Assembly: GCA_036172245.1 (NCBI GenBank)
Contig: JAYWIR010000047.1
Coordinates: forward strand, 434,001 to 498,000
From: Raillietiella orientalis
Taxonomy: Eukaryota
Reading direction: 5' to 3'
Length of the DNA: 64,000 nt
The position numbers and the translations under genes were made by a program. The stretch's first letter is position 1, and every line of letters begins with the position of its first letter. Below the pieces are notes generated by a model that was given only the letters and a program-made list of their open reading frames with translations, ran no database searches and had not been told where the DNA came from. Of the stretch, positions 1-18,046 are shown in pieces.

Positions 1-57
1 CGTACCCGTGCAGAGAGGAATACATCATGGGGAGAGTCTGAGCTCGATGCTCTTCAG

Positions 58-200
58 AAGGTGTGTCAAACTCATTTCAACCACGGGCCATTTCATGCGA
101 CTGGTAAGATTCACGCGAGCCACATGATATTTACAAATTTTCTTAGCATATAAAAAATGGGGGTTTAACATAATAGGGGGCCGCCAGTTTGACATCCCTG
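58..200. mobile_element. Non-autonomous hAT-superfamily MITE
   Basis: Left end AAGGTGTGTCAAACT (58-72) and right end AGTTTGACATCCCTG (186-200) are 15-bp imperfect terminal inverted repeats of the CAGGG.TGTCAAACT type. A perfect 8-bp target-site duplication CTCTTCAG lies at 50-57 and 201-208; 8-bp TSDs are typical of hAT elements. Confidence 0.85.
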
Positions 201-1577
201 CTCTTCAGCATCCTTTTTGAGCTGGTGCTGGAACTGATTTGATGAGTTCACGGACCTGGTGTACAGGCTGACTCTGGCTAGCCTGTTGAGCTCGACGTAG
301 GTCTCCCTACACACCGGCACTGGCGGCCTACGCGGAAAGCTTGCTTCTGCTGCACATGTCCACTCCAGCGTTGTCGCTCCAGGAACTCTTCGTGCTAATC
401 CGTCGGGGAGTGCGCACTTGCGTCAAAGGCAGACCACCGTCCTACCTGTCCGAGAGTCATGGGAGAGAGTTGCACTAGTTCGCTTGAGTTGCACTGACGC
501 CTATGGGTTGTACTTTCAAGTACACAAGTACACAAGGGTACACAAGGGCCATTCCAGCAATACAAGAGCAAAGTCCGGCTGCCTACAATAGGCTCTTCAT
601 CGGAGGAAAGTCCCTCTTGCCGGAAGGCGTTCTTTGACAAACTCATCGAGAGTGTGGTTTTAGACGTTCACTAATTGAGTAACTTGCATACATGATATTG
701 CGATTTTCACGTTTTGATTTTCGAGGTCTTGTCATTACTGGTTTTGCAGTTCCAGAGCAGTTTCTAACTCAGCATTCTCCTGTTCCAAGTTTTAAGGAAG
801 TATTTTTGAACGGTACGTTTTGCGGGTAAAATGCCTCTCTCCATCCCATTTGCTCCTGGCTGAAGCAGATCCGCGGTGAAGTTTGCAAGCAGTTTTCGCA
901 CGTATGAAGAAAAATTCTCGAGTCCAAGAAAATGAATTAAATTTTCGGTGTTTATCCACACAGATTTCACTTCCTGTAAGTACTACTTTGACATTCTAGA
1001 AACATTACACCCGACATCTCGAAGCACACGTACACACAAAAAAAAAAAAAAAAAAATCACCAAAGTATCAGTTTAAACCTGTATTTATTTCTCCATGTTT
1101 CTTTTTCTGTATTTCCCATCTTTCTCCGAGCTAATATACTGTTCTAAAGACCTTGGTCTTTTGTGCAGCTCGTATGCTCCTTTCCCCCCTCCCCCCCCTC
1201 GCCTCTCTCTGTTGTCGCTCCCCGGCAGCTGCCGTGTTGCCAACCGGACAACTGAGTTAAACTGAAAAGTTTGCTGCATAAACAAACGGAAGAAAAGAAG
1301 AACAAAGTCGGATAGCAATAGTAAAGTATCAGGAGTGGATCACTGAGAGAACAGTGGTCGCGAGTCATCCACACGGGCTTTCCATTACTTGTTTTTTCCT
1401 GTGTTGGGTGACAAATGCACCAAAGGGATGGTTGGATGACTGCTCAAGAGCTATGGGAAGAAATTGAGGGTTCCCCCCGAGCCCCCCATCCACGGATGTT
1501 GGTGTTGATCTGACTGTATAATTAGGTGACAGATGTACACTCTTTAGTCATATGGTTTAGTATTTCACGTTTTAAGA

Positions 1578-4500
1578 ATGGCCATCGAAAAGAAAGGTTG
1601 GTTCATCCTTTTTTTTTTCCTTTTTTTTTAAATGTGTTGCCATTTAATGTGAATTGAGACAAAGACAGTGTTCGACGTGTACTTTGCGACAGTTTGGGTC
1701 AGAAATAAGTACTTAAATACCAAGTGCAATTCCGGTTCTCAGTGAAGTTTATACTAATCACAGAAGTTTGCTGTGTAATTTATATATTGCTGTTCGTACT
1801 TGTGTTGCGTATAACATTGGGAAGTTTCTCAATATTAGTATTTGACTGTAGTTAAGGGTTTGAACATTCAAGAAATTGTGTTTGCCAGTATTAAGGAATT
1901 GCTGTATTTCAATTTCACAAACATCGAAACATGATAATAACAACAATCATACCCATAAACATAATTTTAAGCTTCTAATTCTCATGACGTATTAGTGAAG
2001 GCTGAACATGATTAGAAGTACGGTACTGTCAGGTTAAATTTATTGTTAACATTTAATTATAGTGTACATTGCATAGCTTTAGCTTCATGGTTCTGGAAAG
2101 GAAAGATTTTGTTTTGCAATATTAGTCAGTCATGTATTGCCCGATTTTTTTTTTTCATTGAATACATTCGGTGTTCATTATGATATGTGGTTTTTTGCTT
2201 CCTAGTTTGCTTCTTGAGGAGCAAATGTGAGGGTTTATTTTGAAAGCATGCAAATTGACTTTCCATGGCTGAAGCTGTAAGGCACAAAATGAGAGTTTTC
2301 ATTTTTTTTTTTCTATTCTGTAATTTTCAGCGTCTTTTTTGAAAAAACTGATGTTTGCTCCATGCATGAATTGTACTAATCCATTATTCGTTTTTCTTAG
2401 CAATCAATAAGCCAGAACCTCCCAGCATTGAGGAGATGATTGAAGATGTCAAGTCAGCTGGCCCTGATGATATTTTGTTTTGCATCCAGGAATTTGATGG
2501 TAAAATGTTACTTTAAAATATGTCAGCATTCATACATTCTTCCTGGATGAAAAACTATTTATCCTATGATTCTAATCCATTGATTTGATTTGGAAGGATC
2601 ATTGTAGATGGCTTTCTGGAGTTTGTGAACCAACTTGATGCATGGTTATAAATGGAGTTTTGACAAATACTCTTGTATACATTTTTGTGCATTATTGTCC
2701 TGGCAATGTATGTGTTTTATATTTCTCAGGTAACTTTCGTTGCTAGATTTTCTTTTTGATTGTTTTTGAAGTTTTAATGTGATGTTTAGAAGTTCAATCT
2801 TTGTGAAAGTGGTCCCATGAAATCTTCGTTTGAAAATATCTCAGTTTGAAATGCTTGCTGTTGTAAATTGCTTTCATAGTGTACATACTGTAAAATATTT
2901 GTCTTTGTGGATATTTGTGAAAAAAATCTGCTAAGAAATTATATTATGACCAGTGAATATTTTTTATTCAATAAATTAGCATGTCGAATTAACTACTTTA
3001 AAAATCAGAACTTTGGGATATATATGTATTAACTTTTTGTTTGCATCAGTCATATTTCAGGGAAAGTGGAAAGGTTTTTAATCCAATGTTCCATATGTGA
3101 ATATCAGATTATTTTGAGTCTAGATAGATAATGTGAGTTTATGATAATGGAATTTTAATATATAGCAGTAGCTAATTTTTTTCATTATAAGGATTGAGTT
3201 TTTGTTTTCTTGTTCTTTTCTAGTGGAAGTGTGTTTCTAGTTTTCTAGGATATCATTGTACTTGAAGCTACATGAATGTTCATTTCTTTCCAAGATTGTG
3301 ATTTTTTTTATTTGATTTGTGGTCTTCAAAAATTTCAGTTTTTCAATCTTTAAATGAGTAATTTTAGTTCTGTTCATCTCTTAAGTTCTGTTCATATCCT
3401 GAGAAATATATCTGGAGTATGTATGTATTCCTTAGTGAGTAGTGGTAGCATTATCTTTTCTGTTATTCATATAACTGCAGCTCATAGTATGCACAGTATC
3501 ATTTTTTTTTTTCCTCTCCCAAACAACCACATTTCTTTAATTGCAGTTTAATATTTTTTGAAATTCAAAATCCTTTCATGCAATTATGGGAACATGTAAT
3601 TACTTTGGAACTGAATAAGAAGAGTAAGTGTTCAGAATAATATTGGCTTAAAAAAATAAAAATTCACAGCAGCAAGCAAAGCTGAAGACCAAAAGCAGTG
3701 CAGGGAAATTATAGAAATTTCAAGAAACAAGTACCGACTGGAAAGTACATGAACATGCATTTGTTTCTGAGTTACTGATAACTGGTTGCTGTTTGAACAG
3801 GTGTCCAGATCTTGCAGATTAGTGATTTGTACATGCCAAAGAGGTTATAAAGTGAGGAAATTCTATGTAAAAGCCATCAATTTGTTTTACTTCCCCCTTT
3901 GCTATGCAGGTGCAGACATTTTCTCATTTTGTATAATTTTGTTAGTTGTTGGGAGAAATAGGAGAGACTGTTGATATCAAAGACATCGATTCACTGAAAT
4001 AAAAACTGATTGTGCAAAAGATATTAAGATGCAAATGTTGCCACATTAGTGTTAGACTTGAGTGCAGGGCACAAAATAAATAAAGCAAGGTAAACATGTC
4101 TTTTGGAAGAAATTGCATAAGCCTAAGATAACAACTTATTGAGTTTTGAATTATATTTCCCAAGTTTTCAAAGGCAGTATTGTAGAGATTGAAAGGTGAG
4201 AAAGCATTATTGTGGATAACTTACAAATTGATCCCCAATGTATAGTATAGTGAATATATTGATGTAAATCAATCCCTTTGTTTCTGACAGTCCTCAAATG
4301 ATGATTATTTTTTTGAGAGGATTTATTTTTAAGATTGTAGTATGAATCCTTTAAACTGAATCTTTATGTTGGAAGCAATGGTGTGAAAATGTTAATAATT
4401 TTTTTTTCATCAGTATAAGAATGCAGTAAAACAAAAACAAGAAACAAATCACTGAGCAAGAATGTGTTCATGAACTGAAGTTTCGAGTCAAAAAACTTCA

Positions 4501-5385
4501 CTTTGAAACTCTGTTATCCAGAGGCTTCACACAGTATTCCAATTATCTGTTGTTATGTAATATGAATTTACACATCCTTCTTGAGTTATTCATTTTCTTT
4601 GATTTGTGCTAGAAAACAAAAGTGGCTTTATTAGCTGTTTGGTATGTCTTTGTAACTCAATGTATGTATAATAAGGAGGTCAAAAGCAAAGTGGCATTTC
4701 AGGGACTATATGAGAAACTGCTTCAACATAAACTCCTGTGTTTCATATCATCATAATGGTTTGTTGATCCTCCCCTTTCTGATGCAAAAATGTAGACTTC
4801 TGCAGTAAACTTGCATATTCTTCTTTGGACACTGATTTGTTTTGATGTATGTAGTGATCAAACAACCTACAAAACGTACTTAGCACATAATGTTCTTAAA
4901 TTCTGACAAATACCATAAAATGCGTACTAATCATAGATTACAGTGTAACAAAATTTCATTAAAAACTGTAAATATATTTTTTAATGATAATGTAGATATA
5001 TTTTTTAGGTCATTTATAATTAGATAATTTCTAAAATTTTATAGACTTTATTGCCAACGATGATTGTTGAATACTAAGTACATGTAAAATGTACATTCTA
5101 GTTAAGTATTTAATGTTTTACAGTCTTTAATTCATTAATGAATTTATGTTCCACATTCAAATAAGATCCAAATCTTTTGTAGACTTGCACATTGAAGATA
5201 ATTTGAAAGATGAGAATGCCAATGAAATGTATAAAAATCTGTGTAAATTAATTAAATGCCACAAAGGACTACAAAGTGGACAAGATGAACTCAGGCAAAA
5301 AGTTGAAGAGTTGAAAGTTCTTAAAAATTCCATTAACGAATTACTAGCGAGCTTAAGAGAAGGAACTGATGTTGAAATTACCTGA
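1578..5385 (+). CDS. C19orf25: UPF0449 family protein (C19orf25 homolog), 3 coding exons: 1578-1596, 2401-2499, 5183-5385 (106 aa)
   Basis: Spliced translation MAIEKKAINKPEPPSIEEMIEDVKSAGPDDILFCIQEFD-DLHIEDNLKDENANEMYKNLCKLIKCHKGLQSGQDELRQKVEELKVLKNSINELLASLREGTDVEIT*. The P-x-PP-x-x-E-x-x-x-EDV-x-x-A-x-x-x-D-x-x-F motif plus a C-terminal coiled coil match UPF0449 as I recall it. Both introns are GT-AG and phase 1; AATAAA at 5406-5411. Exon 1 is the least certain. Confidence 0.75.
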
Positions 5386-5938
5386 TTATTTTCTTATATT
5401 GTAAGAATAAAAAATTTTGGACATTCATTGAAATGGTTGACTGTATATTTCTATCACAATATGGAAATGTGATTTATTATGCATCTTATTGAAATTGGAG
5501 TAATGCTTATAGCATTCTTTGAAAGTGCTGTACTTACCATATAAAGTGTTTGCTACATAAGTTGTTCAGAATTCAAGGATGTCAGTGTGTATATCTGTAT
5601 GAACCATTTGGATGCTACTCATGTACACATTTAAAAGTTTACTTGAGCACAATTTTTTCAATCCCAATTTGGTAGAGCTGTTAATGTTGAAACTGAAATT
5701 TTTTATCAACACTTCAACATTTCCAATTATTTTACTTCTAAATGAATCCAATGCTTTTTGTAGCACATTTTAAGGTAATACATATTTGAAATAAAAGGCC
5801 AAGTTATATGAATGAAATTAAGTGTTCAGTGTGTTGTATTGCAATTGCAGGATTAATTATAAAGAATGAAATAAAAGTGTCTGTGCACGTGTATCAAAAA
5901 CATGCTTTGTCTGTTCTTGATTTTGTTGGAAGATGCAA

Positions 5939-6002
5939 ACAGCTTTAGAGCCTTATATATCTGCAAGGACTTTGGATTTTCATTATGATAAGCATCATAG
6001 GG
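5939..6002 (+). pseudogene. Fragment of a bacterial-type Fe/Mn superoxide dismutase gene (N-terminal region)
   Basis: Frame from 5939 reads TALEPYISARTLDFHYDKHHR, the conserved ALEP-x-IS-x-x-T-x-x-x-H-x-x-KHH motif of Fe/Mn SODs. The preceding LPY motif is absent, the frame stops after RDRENMEN, and I see no flanking splice sites or further SOD exons. Confidence 0.75.
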
Positions 6003-7904
6003 ATAGGGAAAATATGGAAAATTGATAGATCAATATTAAATGAAATAGCTTTAAGCATTGGAGTCAAACTTTAATACAATCTATTTTTTCGGGTTTTTTG
6101 AACCAACCCATCCCATCAGAGGTTCAATATAGTAAGGATCAGACATAATCATGTTATGAAAGAGGAAGTAGCTATTCCCAGGGATTTCCATTATTTGAAA
6201 GTTATTAAGTTTGCACTGAAATAAATGTGTAATTCTATAATCTTTACTGAGAGGTTGTTATCCAATAAAACAAGGTTTAAAATTCTGTGTAATGTCGTTA
6301 ATTATAATATGGAATCATATTAATTTTCTCGTCAAGCTGTGAATTTTCATGAATCACTTGTAGTATGTACATATCATTCTCTTGAATGGCAAATTGAATG
6401 TTTATCAGGCCTTTCATATTAAGTTTGATGGAAGAATGTAATAAGATTAGTAATCAAGAATTGTTGGATGGAGAAGATATAAAGGCATGTCTTTATAGCA
6501 TATTTACTAAATTCAGTTGAACATAGGTATGGAATGATCCATTGAAAAAAATGCTAGCCATGATTTCTGCAATAATTATTTGTGAAGCATGAATCAGATA
6601 TTCAAGAAAATGCAAGAAAGTAATTATTTCGTTCGAATCTGATTGAATTTTTTCTAAAATGTAACCAGGAACTGTGTGTCAGAAACATTGTTATCTTTTC
6701 TTTTTTTTTTTTTCCCAAGAAACAAAATAGAAAAATGCCAAAATAATTGACACTTTTAAAAAGTAGATGGCAAAAAAAATTCCGATGGTTAAAAATTTTG
6801 TTGACTTTTGCAGTTCTGAGAAACTGACTTAAAGACAAAATATTCAGATGTCATTTATGTAAGCTTAGCAATCATTAAAAGGCGAATTTCACAAAACCTC
6901 ATGGAAGGATATGTGAAGTAACATTCAGCTGTTTAATAAAAATTCGAATAAACAAAAACCCAAAGAGAATTTCATTTTCTTAAAGGAAAAGCAAAACAGG
7001 CTAATTATGAGCAAGAAATCTTTCTCAAAAGCACTTTAAAGAAACAAGATCAGTAACTTTAGAAGGTAACTGACAAGATTCAAAGTACAATTTAAATATG
7101 TGTTCATGAGTATTACTCAACTTGTTAAAATGAAAGCTCATTGTAGAAATGCATGTTCTGAAAAATCTGTGGAATCAAAACGATGAAACAAAATCAAAAA
7201 CATTATTGTGGCATAAAAATGTTTTAGAGACAAAAAGTTTCTGACCATCAAACCATGTACCAAACCATTAGAACAGTGACATACGGATGTAGCTAAAACA
7301 TGGATGTTTCAAGTAAAAAGCGACAAAAATTAAAAGAAATAAATCATAGAGGGCTATAGGTGTTAAAAGCATTGTCATTCACATAACTAAGTTGTTGTGC
7401 ACCAATGACTTAGCACATCTATATAACTACCTAATTTGCTACTGGAATTTTTTATGGATTTCTATTTTCTATATTGGTAACTTGAGTTTCCCAATATTTT
7501 TCATTCAACATAGTTTCTTAAGAATTCCAAAACAGTTCCAAAACTGCACAAGCTACAATTTACAGCTAGAATCTGAATCAAGCAGGTCAAAACCTAAGAT
7601 ATTTCTTGAACACTCGGCATCTTAGTTTGCAAAAAATATAATTAGGAAGAATGGTGCTAAACATTTATTTTCCATTCAACTTCTTGACATGCTCGATGCA
7701 TGTTCTTAACAGATCTTTTGAAGCTTACCATGGCCATTAAATTTAAAACTGCTATCCACGTTTTATTACGAAATATAAAAGTAATTTTCTCCAGCATCAA
7801 TAAAAGTGGAATAACTCCATTTTCATTTATTACCGAGTAAGGGCCACAATTATGAATCCACTCTAGGGCAAGTTTTTATTTTGAACCAATCAGTAAATCT
7901 TGAA

Positions 7905-8273
7905 CTAAATTTTTCTAGTCGCTTTTTTAAGGTTACTCAGGACGGGTCGCTTTGCACTTCGATAGCCTTGTAATTCTTGTAGTCGTCCCTCAATGGACTT
8001 AATGATATCAACATCATCAGGTATGTGTACGTATCGAATCTGTCTACCTTGCACTAACAAGTTTTCGAACCGTGACACAACCCGAGAATCACACGTCATG
8101 ATAGCATTGACAAGTTCTACATTCATATATCCATCCACACTTGATATTTCACCCGTTACTTCGATTTCATTACGAAGTTCAATGCTCACTTTTTTGTTTT
8201 TCAGGGACTGGAGTAAACATAATAACGTGTTTATCGAATAATAACGTTCTCTTAAGCTAGAAACAGCTGCCAT
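7905..8273 (-). CDS. LSM10: U7 snRNA-associated Sm-like protein LSm10 (122 aa, single coding exon)
   Basis: ORF 7905-8333, probable start MAAVSSLRERYYSINTLLCLLQSL at 8273. It contains Sm1 (VSIELRNEIEVTGEISSVDGYMNVELVNA) and Sm2 (FENLLVQGRQIRYVHIPDDV) motifs with the LSm10-type N-terminus (ER...N-S/T-L..LLQ.L) and RYVHIPD. Confidence 0.93.
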   Translation of the reverse strand: MAAVSSLRERYYSINTLLCLLQSLKNKKVSIELRNEIEVTGEISSVDGYMNVELVNAIMTCDSRVVSRFENLLVQGRQIRYVHIPDDVDIIKSIEGRLQELQGYRSAKRPVLSNLKKATRKI

Positions 8274-8779
8274 GACAACACAGCACTCGCTCTGCAGAAG
8301 TTTTGTACAAAGTGGTTCAGCATTGCCCTTCATTTATTTTCTGATAATTCGAAAAAGGAATACAATTAATATTACCACAAAATTGAAACAAACGGTCGGT
8401 GTATAGATGTCTATAGAGAATATCTGCAAATTATATTAAAACTTCTATGCAGGACTTTTATTATGTATCCAAGAGTTCCGGATATTGTTTGGGAACATTT
8501 TATGATGAATATTTGTGAGAACTAGTTGTTTAAACTCACCAGGAAAATCTCAACGATTCTCTTATAGCACTGCATATTGCTTAGTTATGGTATTTGAGGC
8601 ATTATTCAAAAAGCATACAATTTCAGGGATTACGCATTTCTTAGCAATGCACGAAAATTCATTATGGATCGTTAGAATATTTCTTTTACTGAAAATTTGT
8701 GCCACCGTGGTTTTGCAATAACCACTGAATGGCAAGCAGCAGAATCAATTACATGCATGTATTGTATCTAATAATTAGA

Positions 8780-9720
8780 ACCTTTTTACATAAAGTCATG
8801 CAGTGACAGATATGTGTACCTACATGCTGTTGTATATGGAGTGACGTAAATGCATGTTTTGTTTTTAAATGTTCCGTTGTCCTGTAAACAAAGCGTTAGT
8901 AACCTTTTTCTAGCATTTCCAGTACCAGAAAGGTTTTTGTAGATCTTGAAAATCAAGCGACAAAAAACATTTTTCTGACGAATGTGAACTGTTCTGCGCG
9001 TGTTTCTGATTAGAATTGGGCATCCAAGGAAGAGGCGTAGCAAATCAGGGATCTTGAATTTGCAGAATTTTGCTTGTGGTTTATGGTTATGCTCCTTACT
9101 TTTCGATTCATAGTAAGTACTCCGTGGAAAAAAGATGGAAGATGTGCCAAATTATCATCATCGCTTTAGCTGATATTCATGTCACTTCAAGCAGGTGTGT
9201 GTGAGTGCACCTCTAGATTTCCTACATAAAAATTGCTTATTTGCTTTTGTGATTAGGATCGTAGATCCTAATGAGCGATAGAAACTTCTCTCTGGACTCC
9301 GTTCCTACCCTGTCTGTTTTTGTGAAGGGTTTCTTGAAAAGAAATTGCAATCTCTTGAAACAGATTTTCAGCTTTGAGAAAATTCGGGGCTTTCTTATGG
9401 TGCCGATTAACAGAATCAGCTCCGTAATCGTGGCTAGAGTTCGAAAAGCATTCTTGTCTGGGAGCAAGTTTGGTGCTCTTCTCCAGCTGTTATCACCTCA
9501 GAGCACTGCTTGAAGAGTCCAGCCTAGTGTCTATAGCTTATTGCATTGCTTCTTTGCTTTCTGTTAGCTCGGCCTGCCTGGCTGCTAAATCCCTTGCCGC
9601 AGTGCTGTATGGCCTCAGGGCAAGCAACGACAATTGCCAACCGGCGGGGTGGGTGTTCTGCACCATTGCAGGAGTGACCGAACTCCTGGGCGACTGGAAG
9701 GAGTGGACACTTTTGAAAAT
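8780..9720 (-). mobile_element. Decayed non-LTR retrotransposon (L1/Tx1-like) fragments
   Basis: Stop-interrupted minus-strand frames, including a C-terminus-like stretch LRLFLGCP...GNARKRL. Weak resemblance only. Confidence 0.3.
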
Positions 9721-12700
9721 TTATAGTTTTTAATATAAAAATTGAAAACTATAAGTCAATACCTATCATTCTTTATAAAAATCCCAATTTTATCATTTTG
9801 TTTTAATATCACTACCATATAAAGAATATAAATTATTAATAGTCTAAACATTAAATCTAAACGTTAAAAGTAAAGGATATCCTTCTAACTCGCCAGATGT
9901 TATTAAGATTATCGTATTGAATATCAGTTATCAAACAAAAACATTTAGTTGAATGATAATTAATTATTTTCTCAGATTATATAATTTATTATTTTTTATG
10001 AAATTGAATCAATTTTTTTATAAATAGAAATATACGAATTAAGGACAATAAAAGTTCCTTGCACCTGTGCTCTGTCTTCACTGGCATGGCAGATATCGAA
10101 AGTTCGAAACGCGTCCCGTTTTCGAGAACATTCGCTGCCTGAGAAGCGCCCAATGTTTTGTGTGGACCAATGATGGGTAGCTGCTTGATCGTCGCAAAGA
10201 ACGAGGGGTCTCAGCCTGCTACGTTTCTGTTTTGAAGCTTTCTCCCTAATCTTTTCGACTGACTGGTCAAGTTGTGAGACGTCTTTTCTGCCACAGCATC
10301 ACTGCTGTCAGATCACAGAACCGAGAATCCGCTACAATTCGCGGATTCTTGGTTCGACGACGCTAGAGTGAATTTCACTCAAGGGGACCAAGGGGACTCA
10401 CTCCCAAGGGAAAGACACCAACCGCTGACCTAGAGGAAAAGGGCAGGATAGGAGGGAATCCTATGCAGAAAGGGAGAGGCTGGTGATGATTGAACGGGAT
10501 GTCGGGCCTGTTCGTCTCGCATGAGATGGCTGCTTCAAACGGTTGACCTCTCCGTATCCAGAAGCGCGAGATGCACCTGGAAAAGCATCACTCTGGGCAG
10601 TAAAGATGAGATTACATGGAGGCAGCCGACGGACCAGGATTCCAGGATTTCGTGTCGGGTTCTGTCGAAGGGAACTTTAACGAGCCCGGTAGCGACCTCG
10701 GGCGCATCTGAACGAGGCAAGCAGCTTCTGGCCGGGAGAGGGCAACGGGGGATTTCGAAGAAAACGTGCTCGCGGATCCGATTATGCAGCTTCCGATGAG
10801 CGTGTGAGGAAGAGAATCACTGCCAGTCTGCGCACGATCCAGCGCAAGGGAGCGTAGCTCTCTTTCCTCAAAGTTCCCCGGCCAGAGGAACGGCCGATTC
10901 GCTCTCGCTGGAGAGGTGAAGGAACAAAAACGCATTTGATGAGTCGCAACGACTGCAACTGCCGAAGGCTAGAAGATGGCTATCGGGACATGAAAAATGG
11001 TAGCTCAACCTTTCGCTTTCATCACTTCATGAAAGCATCAACTCACGTACAGCAGCAATACTCACATAGCAGAATTACAAAGCAGTCTTCTACGCGTTTA
11101 AGGGAAGGTTCACGGCTGTGATCGTCAGATGCTGGAAGCAGAGTGAACCACCCCAATTCGCTACGAACACATTGAGCATTCCTTTACCTGTGTTGCTACA
11201 AAAGGAAATAAAATGCCTTTTTAGTTCTGTCTCGGGCTTAATGTATTGACGGCCCGGAGGAGGACCTAAATAGGGTAACTGATGGCCTACAAAATTCAGC
11301 TGGTAAGGCGTTTCAGACTGAATGGCCTGTAAAACCTCTGAGCGTATGATACGATCGCCTTCAAAATAACAGAATGAGGTTATGACCTGCTTCTGCTCAT
11401 CGATTTACGTGCTCATTTGGCAAAGAGCTTTGGAAGACAGTAGCAAACTGATAAATAATGAAAGCTACCTGTGAGACGTGGGGAAAGGTTTGGTTCATTT
11501 GGCCCTCTGGCAGCTTACGAAAAGAGAGAATTCGAAACACAATGGAGATTCGAGGAAACGGGCGAAGGCCGAAACCGTGCTGCAAGATCCTGCTGGCAGG
11601 TCACCGTGTGATTACCAGAGTCAGTTCTGGTGAAGGCTTCGGGTAAGGGCATCTGGAAGGAGTATAGCTCCATACGCGGCAGCGAAAGCTTTTTCAGTAA
11701 GAAACTGTGAGAATCATGAAGAACTGACTCTCAAAAAAAAGGAATGCCATTGGTTTGCAAGTTTCTGAAAAGATCCAAAGTCCCTACGAAAGATGCGCTT
11801 CTCAAAAGCAGGGCAAAACCGACGAAGTTTCCTTTTTTACCTTTTCAAATATGCGTTGGTGTCTTCATTTAAGATCGGCTGGGCAGTGACGGCCTAACAA
11901 AAATACACTCGGATGTTAATGGCAACTGTACTGGCGCTACACAACACGAGACTTTTTTTTTGGCTCAAGTGATTTAACCAAGAATAGAAACATATGTTGT
12001 GCCTTGAATGACAGCAAGTAACTGAACCCTAGCGTCTTGTTATCCCAGTTTTGATTTCTTTTTTGAAACAGGCACGAAGTTTAGCAAAGTTCACAGACGC
12101 AGAGAAGCGCAAGCGATCCTGTAGACTCAGCTGCACATCCGAAGTTTGTGACAGTGTGTGAGCTCAATGGTTCTGGCAATGAACTGTGGATGCAGCATGG
12201 GTTCTTTCGTATCAATGGTGTTTCGTCGATTCTCTCTGCTGAGGCTTGTCAAATTGCCCTGGAGCAACGTAATTTGCTCTCGTTTCCGATGTTCCATACC
12301 TGCATTTGATTAGGTGAAGAGGAACTCTGATTTGCATTTGTGAAAGATGCGAGGCGTTGTTTCCCAACTGGGTTACTGCTCAGCTGGAAACCCAAGCAGA
12401 AATTTCTACCCGAAACGCACGCAAGCGCGCACACAGGAAAAAGTAAAAGCGAGTGTTTTGGTGCACTAAAGTCTTGCTTGAATGATTGTTCGCTCCAAGA
12501 ACTGCGTTGTGTCGGGATTCGGTTCTTCTTCGATGGCAGTGTCAGCTCGTTGGATGCCCACCGAAGAAAAAAAAAAGGGGGAAAAGAAATGGGTCGAAAT
12601 GCTGCTTGTGTATGCAAAAAGTGAGAGTGAGATGACTGGTTGAAAGAAGTAGACGTCCCTCGCTGTGCCCAAAAATGGCACCAGCAGCTTTGGAAGACGC

Positions 12701-15950: not shown

Positions 15951-16388
15951 AGCGCCTGGAGCGCGGCGGGGGAGGAAACTCGCCCCTATCTCCCTCGGCA
16001 CACTGAACCCTTGCCGTTCAAGGACCTGACCGGTTCTCAGGCTCCTGGAGGTGGAAATTAAGCGCGGCGATCTTCGTCGAATGACAGCAGATGCAACGAC
16101 GTCAGAGAGACGGGAGAGAGGAAGAAGAGAGAGGGAGCGGATAACAGGTGACGCAAACAGCTGCTGCTGCTGTCCACTCCCCGGTCTGTGACATTCGCGG
16201 ATCCTCTGGGAAGGCGGAATGGGGGTGCACCGCATCGGGCGATCTGGGCCAACGCTCAATCAGCACACCGCTCATGCCTCCCGCGGATGCGAGCGCCCTT
16301 CCAGCACTCGGCGAGCGGCGGCCGACAGCTCGAGGTGTCCCGACACCGGGACGCTGGCCTGCCGCGGGGCGGGGGAGACTCCACTTGC

Positions 16389-18046
16389 CTTTCTGGTTGC
16401 TGACGGTCAGGACGTTGCCGCTCAACGTCGTCAGGTTGGCTCCATCGGGCAAGTCCCTCAGGTCATGCTGACCTTCGACGATGAGATTTTCCAGAAGCAT
16501 CATCCTCAGGCGGGCGTCGAAGAAGAACGGATCGCCTCCGTCCTGTGGGATGAGGTTGTCGAACGCTCGGTCCAGGGGTAGGAAAAACGTGTACTCCTTC
16601 GACGCGTCTGCAAAACCGGGAGGGGAAAGAATGCAGAAGGGGGGAACAACAACTTTTGGACTCGTCCTCCGGAGACACCCGTCTCTTGGTGCAGGAAGCC
16701 ATTCTTCCATCTGTACGGGGGGGAAGGGAGAACGGGCGAAGACTGCGCAAGATGCGAAAAGCGAGTAACCACCCCTTCCGGCCGCTCAGTGTGAATGCAG
16801 CAGACGGAAGGGCAAAGATGGGTCGGTACGCAGGCGGTAGCACAGCGCACAAGACAAAGAGAGGGGGGAAAGGGGGGGAAAGAAAATATTTGAATTTGTC
16901 CTCCGGAAGAAGAATTTTCCTCCCGAATGAAACAGACTGCTCGGTGTCTGGAATGAAGGGTGAGCATAAGAAAGTTCTGCATAACGACAATTCCAAAGAA
17001 GCGCTCCTGATGGGATGGAAGATGGATTCTCAAAATCCTCGAATCTTGGAACGGGTTCACGGGACTGAACTCTGGGAGGAGGAGGAGGAGCGAAAGCGAG
17101 AGGAATGGAAGGCACCGATTTCTCGAGCCCGGAGCTCCGAGAAATCTCCCATCTGCAACGGCGGGGCTTCAGTCTTCCCGGCCCGCGGGGCTGCCCTCGC
17201 TTAAGATGCCATTTAAAGCGATGGCCCTTGCGTTCGGTGAGAAACGGGCCAGTAGAAAAAAAAGAAAGCTCTCGAAAGAAAAGTCTTGACAGAGCCACTG
17301 TCATCCCATTAACAGACTCCCCTGATTACGCGCCGGTGCGATCTGTGCCCAGCCCGGCTTTGTGTGCGTGCGTGCGTGCGTGCGGGTGGTGTGCATATGC
17401 ATGCGGGCGCGTATGTATATATATGCACATTCCAAACATTAGTTTGAAACAACTAATTTTAGGAATGAACCATTCCAGATCACCTAATGAGAACAATGGA
17501 GCTTTTTCCCAATCGTGATGAAAGACTAGGATGCAGGGTCTGATGGGAGACTGTGTAGATGATGGCAATGTAGAACCGCTCTTCGGATTCTCAACAGGCT
17601 TCCTGTTTTCGGGTCGCTTTTTGCCCTTTCGCTTTTAAAGAAATCATTTCTTTAGGTTTTAGTCCGTGGTCACTCTGGTGACCTTCTGATGCTTTTCGAG
17701 ATCGCGACTGTTGAACAGAAACTCCTGGAAAGCTAAATAATGTGGATGGGGATGAACGGAATCGATTTGCTTGTTTTCCGATAGTGAGAAATGCTGTTTG
17801 AGGTGGGGGAAAAAAAGGAAAAAAGGGTTACATACTCAGCAGTTGTGCGATGTTCGCCATCTTGATGTAACGAGGAAGACCAAACCACGGGAAATCCGAT
17901 TTCTGGGATGCCATGAATTCCAGGACATCGCTCAATGCATTTATTTCTTCCTCAGAGGAGGCATCCTCTGTGAGAAGGACCCTACTACTGGTTAATCCAA
18001 TCCACACCAGTATAATAGCGCAGGCTCTATGGGCAAGCATTTTCAT
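16389..18046 (-). CDS. Secreted fasciclin (FAS1) domain protein, partial: coding exons 18046-17836 and 16607-16389
   Basis: Exon A: MKMLAHRACAIILVWIGLTSS (signal-peptide-like)...SDVLEFMASQKSDFPWFGLPRYIKMANIAQLL, donor A|GTATGT (phase 1), upstream acceptor at 18081-18082. Exon B (acceptor TTTTGCAG, phase 1): NASKEYTFFLPLDRAFDNL...LLENLIVEGQHDLRDLPDGANLTTLSGNVLTVSNQK, with the FAS1 H1 motif (YT.F.P...AF) and the L.TL.G..L.V motif. Exon B ends at AAG|GCAAGT. Later exons not identified. Confidence 0.82.

Follow-up and report, generated by a model that had tools for sequence, protein, structure and literature searches.

The transfer of Wolbachia DNA into host genomes is in itself well known and ordinary. 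Among the nuclear Wolbachia transfers (nuwts) on record there are short ones, down to the detection limit, and one that lies in a 3' untranslated region (PMC4046930, PMC3849323), and a pair of neighbouring nuwts described in Brugia malayi derives from separate regions of the Wolbachia genome (PMC3849323). Here we describe a 548-base patch at positions 5878-6425 of a stretch of 64,000 nucleotides from Raillietiella orientalis (contig JAYWIR010000047.1; the whole stretch is called the window below), in which eight short pieces of Wolbachia DNA, one of them from the gene sodB of an Fe/Mn superoxide dismutase (SOD), lie end to end. We consider it probable that the patch is a composite nuwt, that is, a non-functional insertion of many short fragments that were end-joined into one chromosome break. 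Like the nuwts of arthropods and nematodes, it consists of Wolbachia DNA amid host DNA, here placed by the assembly, and is fragmentary, inactivated and functionless; it differs from them in being made of eight pieces, all shorter than about 100 bp, with junctions of 0-2 bases. The transfer event is thus of a known kind, and the mosaic is unusually fine and even-sized. A literature search, limited in extent and carrying no claim of absence elsewhere, returned no account of a nuwt built from many tiles of less than 100 bp.

Composite insertions have also been described for organellar DNA. Complex nuclear mitochondrial DNA insertions (numts) contain non-continuous pieces in varied orientations, and concatenation before or during insertion and nonhomologous end joining (NHEJ) at breaks are put forward for them (PMC2820518, PMC6215612), a view whose experimental basis is the capture of mitochondrial DNA at induced breaks in yeast (PMC2820518). 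As far as those sources describe complex or mosaic numts and their plastid counterparts (nupts), the present locus shares with them several non-contiguous donor pieces, differing orientations and junctions of the NHEJ type. The present locus has eight pieces in 548 bp, even in size, and its donor, instead of being an organelle, is a facultative endosymbiont whose genome measures about 1 Mb. With break capture in yeast the locus would have in common short donor fragments, at times more than one per break, that are end-joined without homology, whereas the yeast case is an experimental system with an organellar donor. To our knowledge, eight fragments in one break have not been reported from it.

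Tile map and origin of the mosaic

The first 12 kb of the window was searched against the three whole genomes behind the sodB loci that match the SOD piece, and the search was then widened to the family; for the tile map, positions 4800-7900 and 1-12000 were searched in full against five reference genomes (G076, G078, G049, G068 and G081). Positions 5878-6425 are wholly tiled by eight abutting pieces of 49-92 bp, the largest gap being one base, and each tile is 88-100% identical to a separate, unlinked Wolbachia locus. The tile matches to genomes of the genus Wolbachia have E values of about 1e-14 to 1e-33; all 60 genomes of the genus gave matches, including that of the Wolbachia endosymbiont of Onchocerca ochengi (G002), as did 73 of the 98 genomes at the level of the family. 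To identify the source genes, open reading frames surrounding the matches were taken from the reference loci and named through NCBIfam, Pfam and PHROGs.

The first three tiles all lie in sense orientation on the plus strand. Tile 1 (5878-5935) comes from putA, encoding a bifunctional proline dehydrogenase (91% over 58 bases in G076:C120, G078:C24 and G081:C10; the source frame matches PutA, NF008869, E 0). It is followed by the sodB piece, tile 2 (5937-6002), which shows 100% identity to four genomes of the genus over 66 bases (G076, G078, G081 and G049; Fe superoxide dismutase, NF007832, E 1.7e-63), and by tile 3 (6004-6061), from ispE (93% over 58 bases in G076:C119, G078:C65 and G068; NF011202, E 3.4e-75). 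Tile 4 (6060-6142, minus strand, hence antisense on the plus strand) derives from an NDUS4-like gene (PF04800; 96% over 83 bases in G076:C126, the source frame matching Pfam NDUS4 at E 3.7e-26). Tile 5 (6144-6213, plus strand, sense) matches a phage-tail-fibre-like gene with collagen repeats (93% over 70 bases at G068:480954-481023; Pfam Collagen; PHROGs tail fibre families, best E 1.9e-26). The source gene of this tile occurs in two places each in G049, G068 and G078, and it is presumably prophage DNA, so that prophage sequence would be among the transferred fragments. Tile 6 (6215-6306, minus strand, antisense) holds the last 46 bases of znuA and the spacer that separates them from the 3' end of ndk (88% over 102 bases in G076:C121 and G064:C92; ZnuA NF007091, Ndk NF001908), and its BLAST match stretches weakly back to 6205. 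Tile 7 (6306-6354) is non-coding and 100% identical over 49 bases to G076:C69:1340-1388, in the spacer between the divergent genes surE and ligA; in the source locus L133 this spacer occupies positions 1229-1417, with SurE (NF001490) and LigA (NF005932) on either side, and the searches of the tile-7 source loci found no open reading frame of 60 amino acids and no Rfam family in it. The last piece, tile 8 (6354-6425, minus strand, antisense on the plus strand), comes from carB, encoding the large subunit of carbamoyl-phosphate synthase (97% over 63 bases, 6354-6416, in G076:C3, and 93% over 72 bases in G068; NF003671, E 9.7e-297).

The sources of these tiles are scattered over the donor genome. 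In the two single-contig genomes, G049 and G068, they lie hundreds of kilobases apart in an order unlike that of the window, tiles 1 to 8 corresponding in G049 to positions 141, 638, 168, 1114, 324/768, 111, 521 and 367 kb, and in G076 seven of the tiles map to seven different contigs. Single matches reach 102 bp at most across the 60 genomes of the genus, so that the tiles lie apart from one another in every Wolbachia genome searched, and the mosaic as such is absent from all of them. In addition, an exact search of metagenome contigs with the 25-mer spanning the junction of tiles 2 and 3 gave no matches. Since G076 is best or tied-best for seven of the eight tiles (tile 5 has none in G076 among the matches listed), the pieces would stem from one donor lineage close to G076. 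Relative to the source genes four tiles are in sense orientation, three are antisense and one is non-coding, and two tiles (6 and 7) are partly or wholly intergenic; this mixed orientation and intergenic content point to fragments of genomic DNA and not to copies of mRNAs. The donor fragments are thus non-contiguous and of mixed orientation, as in other complex insertions.

The rest of the window is nearly blank against the same five genomes. From 12001 to 64000 none of the five gave a match at E <= 0.01, and within 1-12000 just two marginal, AT-rich matches lie outside the patch, at 1037-1059 (E 0.0016) and 4580-4633 (E 0.0035), so that the similarity of the eight tiles stands well above background. 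On these alignments we hold the Wolbachia origin of all eight tiles to be beyond reasonable doubt. The SOD piece is no isolated relic, being one tile of eight; the guess of the first-pass annotation that further bacterial scraps might be found nearby was right in that seven more abutting Wolbachia pieces exist, and wrong in placing them at 5.5-6.1 kb instead of 5878-6425.

Two other origins were considered for the patch as a whole and set aside. An mRNA retrocopy is ruled out by the intergenic tiles, by the mixed orientation and by the fact that neither a poly(A) tail nor a target duplication is present. As regards transposon cargo, the locus showed neither terminal repeats nor a duplication.

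The SOD-like reading frame

The sodB tile is visible at the protein level in a stop-to-stop frame at 5921-6025 (plus strand, 34 codons, ATG at 5933), whose translation is FCWKMQTALEPYISARTLDFHYDKHHRDRENMEN. Residues 7-27 of this frame match positions 12-32 of the 82 positions of the Pfam profile Sod_Fe_N with 30.1 bits (E 6.9e-7; curated cut-off, 27 bits). For a single window, 30 bits over 21 residues is a significant match; in a scan of many windows it would be unsafe, and independent evidence was therefore needed. Among solved structures 138 distinct sequences were matched at E <= 10, and all 60 among those listed are Fe/Mn SODs or plastid PAP4/PAP9 homologues. The Sod_Fe_N match and these structure matches uphold the earlier reading of the scrap as the N-terminal motif of an Fe/Mn SOD, 22 residues of which are encoded at 5936-6001 (plus strand).

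For a word-indexed search of 5.8 billion proteins, which needs at least 40 residues, the frame was extended through the upstream TGA, read as X; the search yielded a sole candidate of 202 aa, 'MAG: superoxide dismutase [Wolbachia sp.]' by name, identical to the SOD residues of the window at 21 of 22 positions. When this full-length protein was compared with the whole window by tblastn, only its residues 12-33 were found, at 5936-6001 (E 1.5e-9), the next match having an E value of 0.86; other parts of the SOD gene are therefore absent from the window, just as had been noted from the letters for the flanks of the piece. At the DNA level, positions 5937-6005 share 87-91% identity with the sodB genes of three Rickettsiales loci, two of which belong to Wolbachia endosymbionts of filarial nematodes, and the similarity is abrupt at both ends. 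Two further searches added little. With phmmer the 34-aa frame matched three proteins at E <= 0.001 among 1.84 billion representatives, all of them artificial-looking, carrying the SOD motif twice and uninformative, and tblastn against plasmids matched 98 records, with only generic bacterial SOD matches of 48-73% among the 20 listed.

The first-pass annotation had held the piece to be bacterial and not animal, closest to the Wolbachia enzyme and inserted from an endosymbiont. The sole protein candidate is indeed from Wolbachia, and the DNA is 87-100% identical to sodB in genomes of the genus, four of which match all 66 bases; the proposed endosymbiont origin is thus supported by these comparisons. 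A chance resemblance, or a fragment of a host or animal MnSOD, might be suspected given that the peptide has 22 residues and carries a widely conserved motif, 60-73% identical to many bacterial SODs. Against this, the identity to Wolbachia sodB is complete over 66 bases, synonymous sites included, the seven neighbouring tiles are also from Wolbachia, and 52 kb of the same window are blank at E <= 0.01, which leaves this explanation a practically negligible probability. A pseudo-exon of a host or animal MnSOD was also considered by itself, and is ruled out by the Wolbachia DNA identity and by the lack of any other SOD exon in the window.

A functional Fe/Mn SOD has complete PF00081 and PF02777 domains and all metal ligands. 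The 22 residues of the window resemble such a protein in matching the motif of the N-terminal alpha-hairpin, and differ from it in stopping short within the first profile and having no C-terminal domain, so that the piece is unable to act as an enzyme. The frame that contains it, 30 codons from ATG to TGA at 5933-6025 (plus strand), is chimeric, with its ATG supplied by the putA tile, its residues 2-23 by the sodB tile and its tail by the ispE tile in a frame other than that of ispE. It does not represent a gene; its likeness to SOD is an accident of the patchwork, and it encodes nothing useful.

Junctions, tile length and formation of the patch

To read the junctions, each tile was set beside its reference with 25 extra bases per side. 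At four of the seven internal junctions one base can be assigned to neither source (5936, 6003, 6143 and 6214), and at the other three the sources overlap by 1-2 bases (6060-6061, 6306 and 6354). The search for repeats around the patch found nine direct families and eight inverted pairs, all short and none bracketing the patch, and hence no target-site duplication or terminal repeat flanking it. The internal junctions are consequently of the type left by NHEJ (blunt, with 1-4 bases of microhomology or with short filler, and without duplication), a classification that for the two host junctions needs an empty site. At the junction of tiles 2 and 3 (6000-6008) the motif TAGGG ends one source and starts the other, and the window retains both copies (ATAGGG-ATAGGG). 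This is an oddity, unlike microhomology joining, which would collapse the copies.

The composite-nuwt reading can be put as follows. DNA of lysed Wolbachia would have entered the nucleus of the germline in the form of very short double-stranded fragments, and the end-joining machinery would have sealed many of these into a single chromosomal double-strand break, in the manner of complex numts and nupts. That the patch is a real part of the chromosome is suggested by its position in the assembly, where it is embedded between host genes, and by its differences from living Wolbachia, which include a frameshift and a stop; and because no tile is as long as a sequencing read and the joins overlap by 0-2 bases, it is reasonable to suppose that it is no artefact of assembly. 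An artefact could nevertheless have arisen by chimeric ligation of degraded DNA, by amplification chimeras or by gap filling with reads from resident Wolbachia. Hosts with live Wolbachia give mixed libraries, and the problem that such host/Wolbachia libraries pose is described (PMC3849323). However, random chimeras should mostly join host DNA to host DNA, and here eight consecutive pieces of Wolbachia DNA lie with host DNA on both sides; overlaps of 0-2 bases are far below the word length of an assembler or gap filler; and for six of the eight tiles none of the 60 genomes of the genus that were searched has an identical sequence, the differences including a frameshift and a nonsense change, as expected from nuclear decay or an unsampled donor. 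We therefore regard an artefact as very improbable.

The lengths of the tiles are a feature in their own right. Taken strictly they are 58, 66, 58, 83, 70, 92, 49 and 72 bases (mean 68.5, standard deviation 14.1, coefficient of variation 0.21), and in 200,000 simulated sets of eight exponentially distributed lengths a coefficient of variation this low occurred at a frequency of 7e-5. Because the tiles abut, this evenness does not come from small pieces that escaped detection. It weighs against a composite nuwt, in that the lengths are far more even than random breakage predicts and simple ligation of random debris leaves this unaccounted for. Two further points weigh in the same direction: an imperfect similarity of 8-9 bases between the sources at the junctions of tiles 4 and 5 and of tiles 5 and 6 fits template switching as well as it fits ligation, and the chromosomal location of the patch is given by the assembly and by nothing else.

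Part of this evidence could also be accounted for by synthesis, in which a broken host end or a reverse transcriptase would have copied about 70 bases from each Wolbachia template and re-primed through 0-2 bases of homology, eight times over. Polymerase theta (Pol theta) filler DNA, microhomology-mediated break-induced replication and end-to-end template jumping are the routes that can be named. The narrow range of tile lengths suggests a limit resembling processivity, and short overlaps or extra bases are what Pol theta fillers and template jumping leave at junctions, in agreement with the 1-2 base overlaps, the single extra bases and the imperfect similarity described above. On the other hand, four of the seven junctions are without overlap, and for the version that starts from RNA the two intergenic tiles and the 4:3 orientation are unexpected of complementary DNA made from mRNAs. 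The present data do not directly separate synthesis from ligation, and on balance we think patchwork synthesis unlikely, by whichever of these routes.

Because the composite-nuwt reading by itself leaves the even tile size unexplained, polymerase template switching or a size-limited pool of fragments stays a viable account of that size. We tentatively suggest, as a possibility that deserves some weight, that even tiles with near-blunt joins are the footprint either of a fragment pool limited to about 70 bp or of a polymerase of low processivity that switched templates serially in bursts of about 70 bases, and that either process would generate a class of 'micro-mosaic' nuwts. If such a class exists, standard screens, which ask for at least 100 bp or for strong E values per gene, would systematically miss it, the flow of DNA from endosymbionts to hosts would be under-counted, and the patches would document how that DNA travels.

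The tiles carry some changes relative to their references. Four mismatches and one inserted base are seen in tile 1, and tile 4 carries a nonsense change (Q to stop) at 6083. In the five coding tiles (340 bases) there are 14 differences from the best references, distributed 5/1/8 over codon positions 1/2/3, seven of them synonymous and seven non-synonymous, including one stop, counts that are too small to tell divergence of the donor from decay. All frames of the mosaic are interrupted, with 6-16 stops each. As is usual for nuwts, the DNA is therefore fragmentary, in pieces of 49-92 bp, and bears inactivating changes, namely a frameshift and a nonsense change. The absence of any change in two tiles (2 and 7) suggests that the insertion is not very old. 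Base composition gives no signal for the patch, since patch (31% G+C) and flanks (28% and 30%) are alike.

The apparent age bears on whether the eight tiles could be stubs of something larger, namely of one insertion, large and old, or of several at the same hotspot, later reduced by deletions and inversions. Very large and even whole-genome nuwts exist and fragment over time (PMC4046930, PMC12693587), and seven of the eight sources share a strand in G049, for which chance gives about 0.07 by our own count. Such an origin appears quite improbable to us, given that the source order is not collinear in single-contig G049 or G068, that each of seven deletions would need to have stopped 0-2 bases from the next stub with nothing left in between, that the stub lengths are suspiciously even, and that two tiles at 100% to living Wolbachia and 453 of 479 bases identical to G076 overall look young for decay of this extent.

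Taken as a composite nuwt, the locus is a clean and young-looking case in which eight pieces of less than 100 bp from unlinked bacterial loci came together in one spot, and it would inform on the physical state of the incoming DNA, very short and drawn from the whole genome, prophage-like sequence included, and on how repair builds it into a chromosome. For annotation and contamination screens the locus is a caution, as such patches fall tile by tile below the usual thresholds of length or score. The nuwt screens in PMC4046930 and PMC12693587, according to the thresholds given there, take matches above 100 bases and matches with E < 1e-30, respectively, and single tiles of this patch would escape both because they lie below those thresholds. 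Patches of this kind can, in addition, yield short and perfect-looking motifs of bacterial proteins in the intergenic DNA of eukaryotes.

Host genes and the remainder of the window

In the assembly the patch is flanked by two convergent host genes. On the left lies an exon resembling UPF0449 (C19orf25 family) at 5131-5385 (plus strand), whose Pfam match of 25.8 bits (E 1.5e-5) is below the cut-off of 27 and whose stop is 493 bases upstream of the mosaic. On the right is LSM10, a single open frame at 7908-8333 (minus strand) with an LSM domain of 50.1 bits, which lies about 1.5 kb downstream of the mosaic. Of 90 candidate proteins 39 match the LSM10 product at E <= 0.001, with an identity of at most 54%, and the best named matches are LSm10 proteins of Pycnogonum (53%), Limulus and Tachypleus (42-43%), Anneissia (54%), Priapulus and Amphibalanus; chelicerates come out on top, with the crinoid and the priapulid nearly equal in score. 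Judged by these matches, the host is an invertebrate and probably an arthropod. The two neighbours named by the first-pass annotation thus fare differently: LSM10 is confirmed by its domain and best matches, and the C19orf25-like label is marginal. The DNA around the patch is AT-rich and depleted of CpG. An AATAAA hexamer stands at 5870-5875, directly before tile 1 and 485 bases past the UPF0449-like stop, and the patch may lie at or just beyond the polyadenylation site of the UPF0449-like gene, where breaks could be tolerated.

Over the whole window no Rfam family and no tandem repeat at a score of at least 80 was found. The largest feature of the remainder is a block of about 46 kb at 10000-56000 with a G+C content of 50-66% and an observed/expected CpG ratio of 0.8-1.1, set between flanks with 30-37% G+C and a ratio of 0.31-0.69. 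The searches revealed no Rfam family, no tandem repeats and no Wolbachia-like DNA in this block, which could be a large unmethylated domain of the host or foreign DNA of another origin. Only one of its 124 stop-to-stop frames of at least 130 amino acids has a Pfam match. The sole recognisable coding signal in the block, which found no match among the longer proteins of the protein collection, is an open frame of 227 amino acids at 16105-16785 (minus strand) with a Fasciclin domain (PF02469, E 1e-6).

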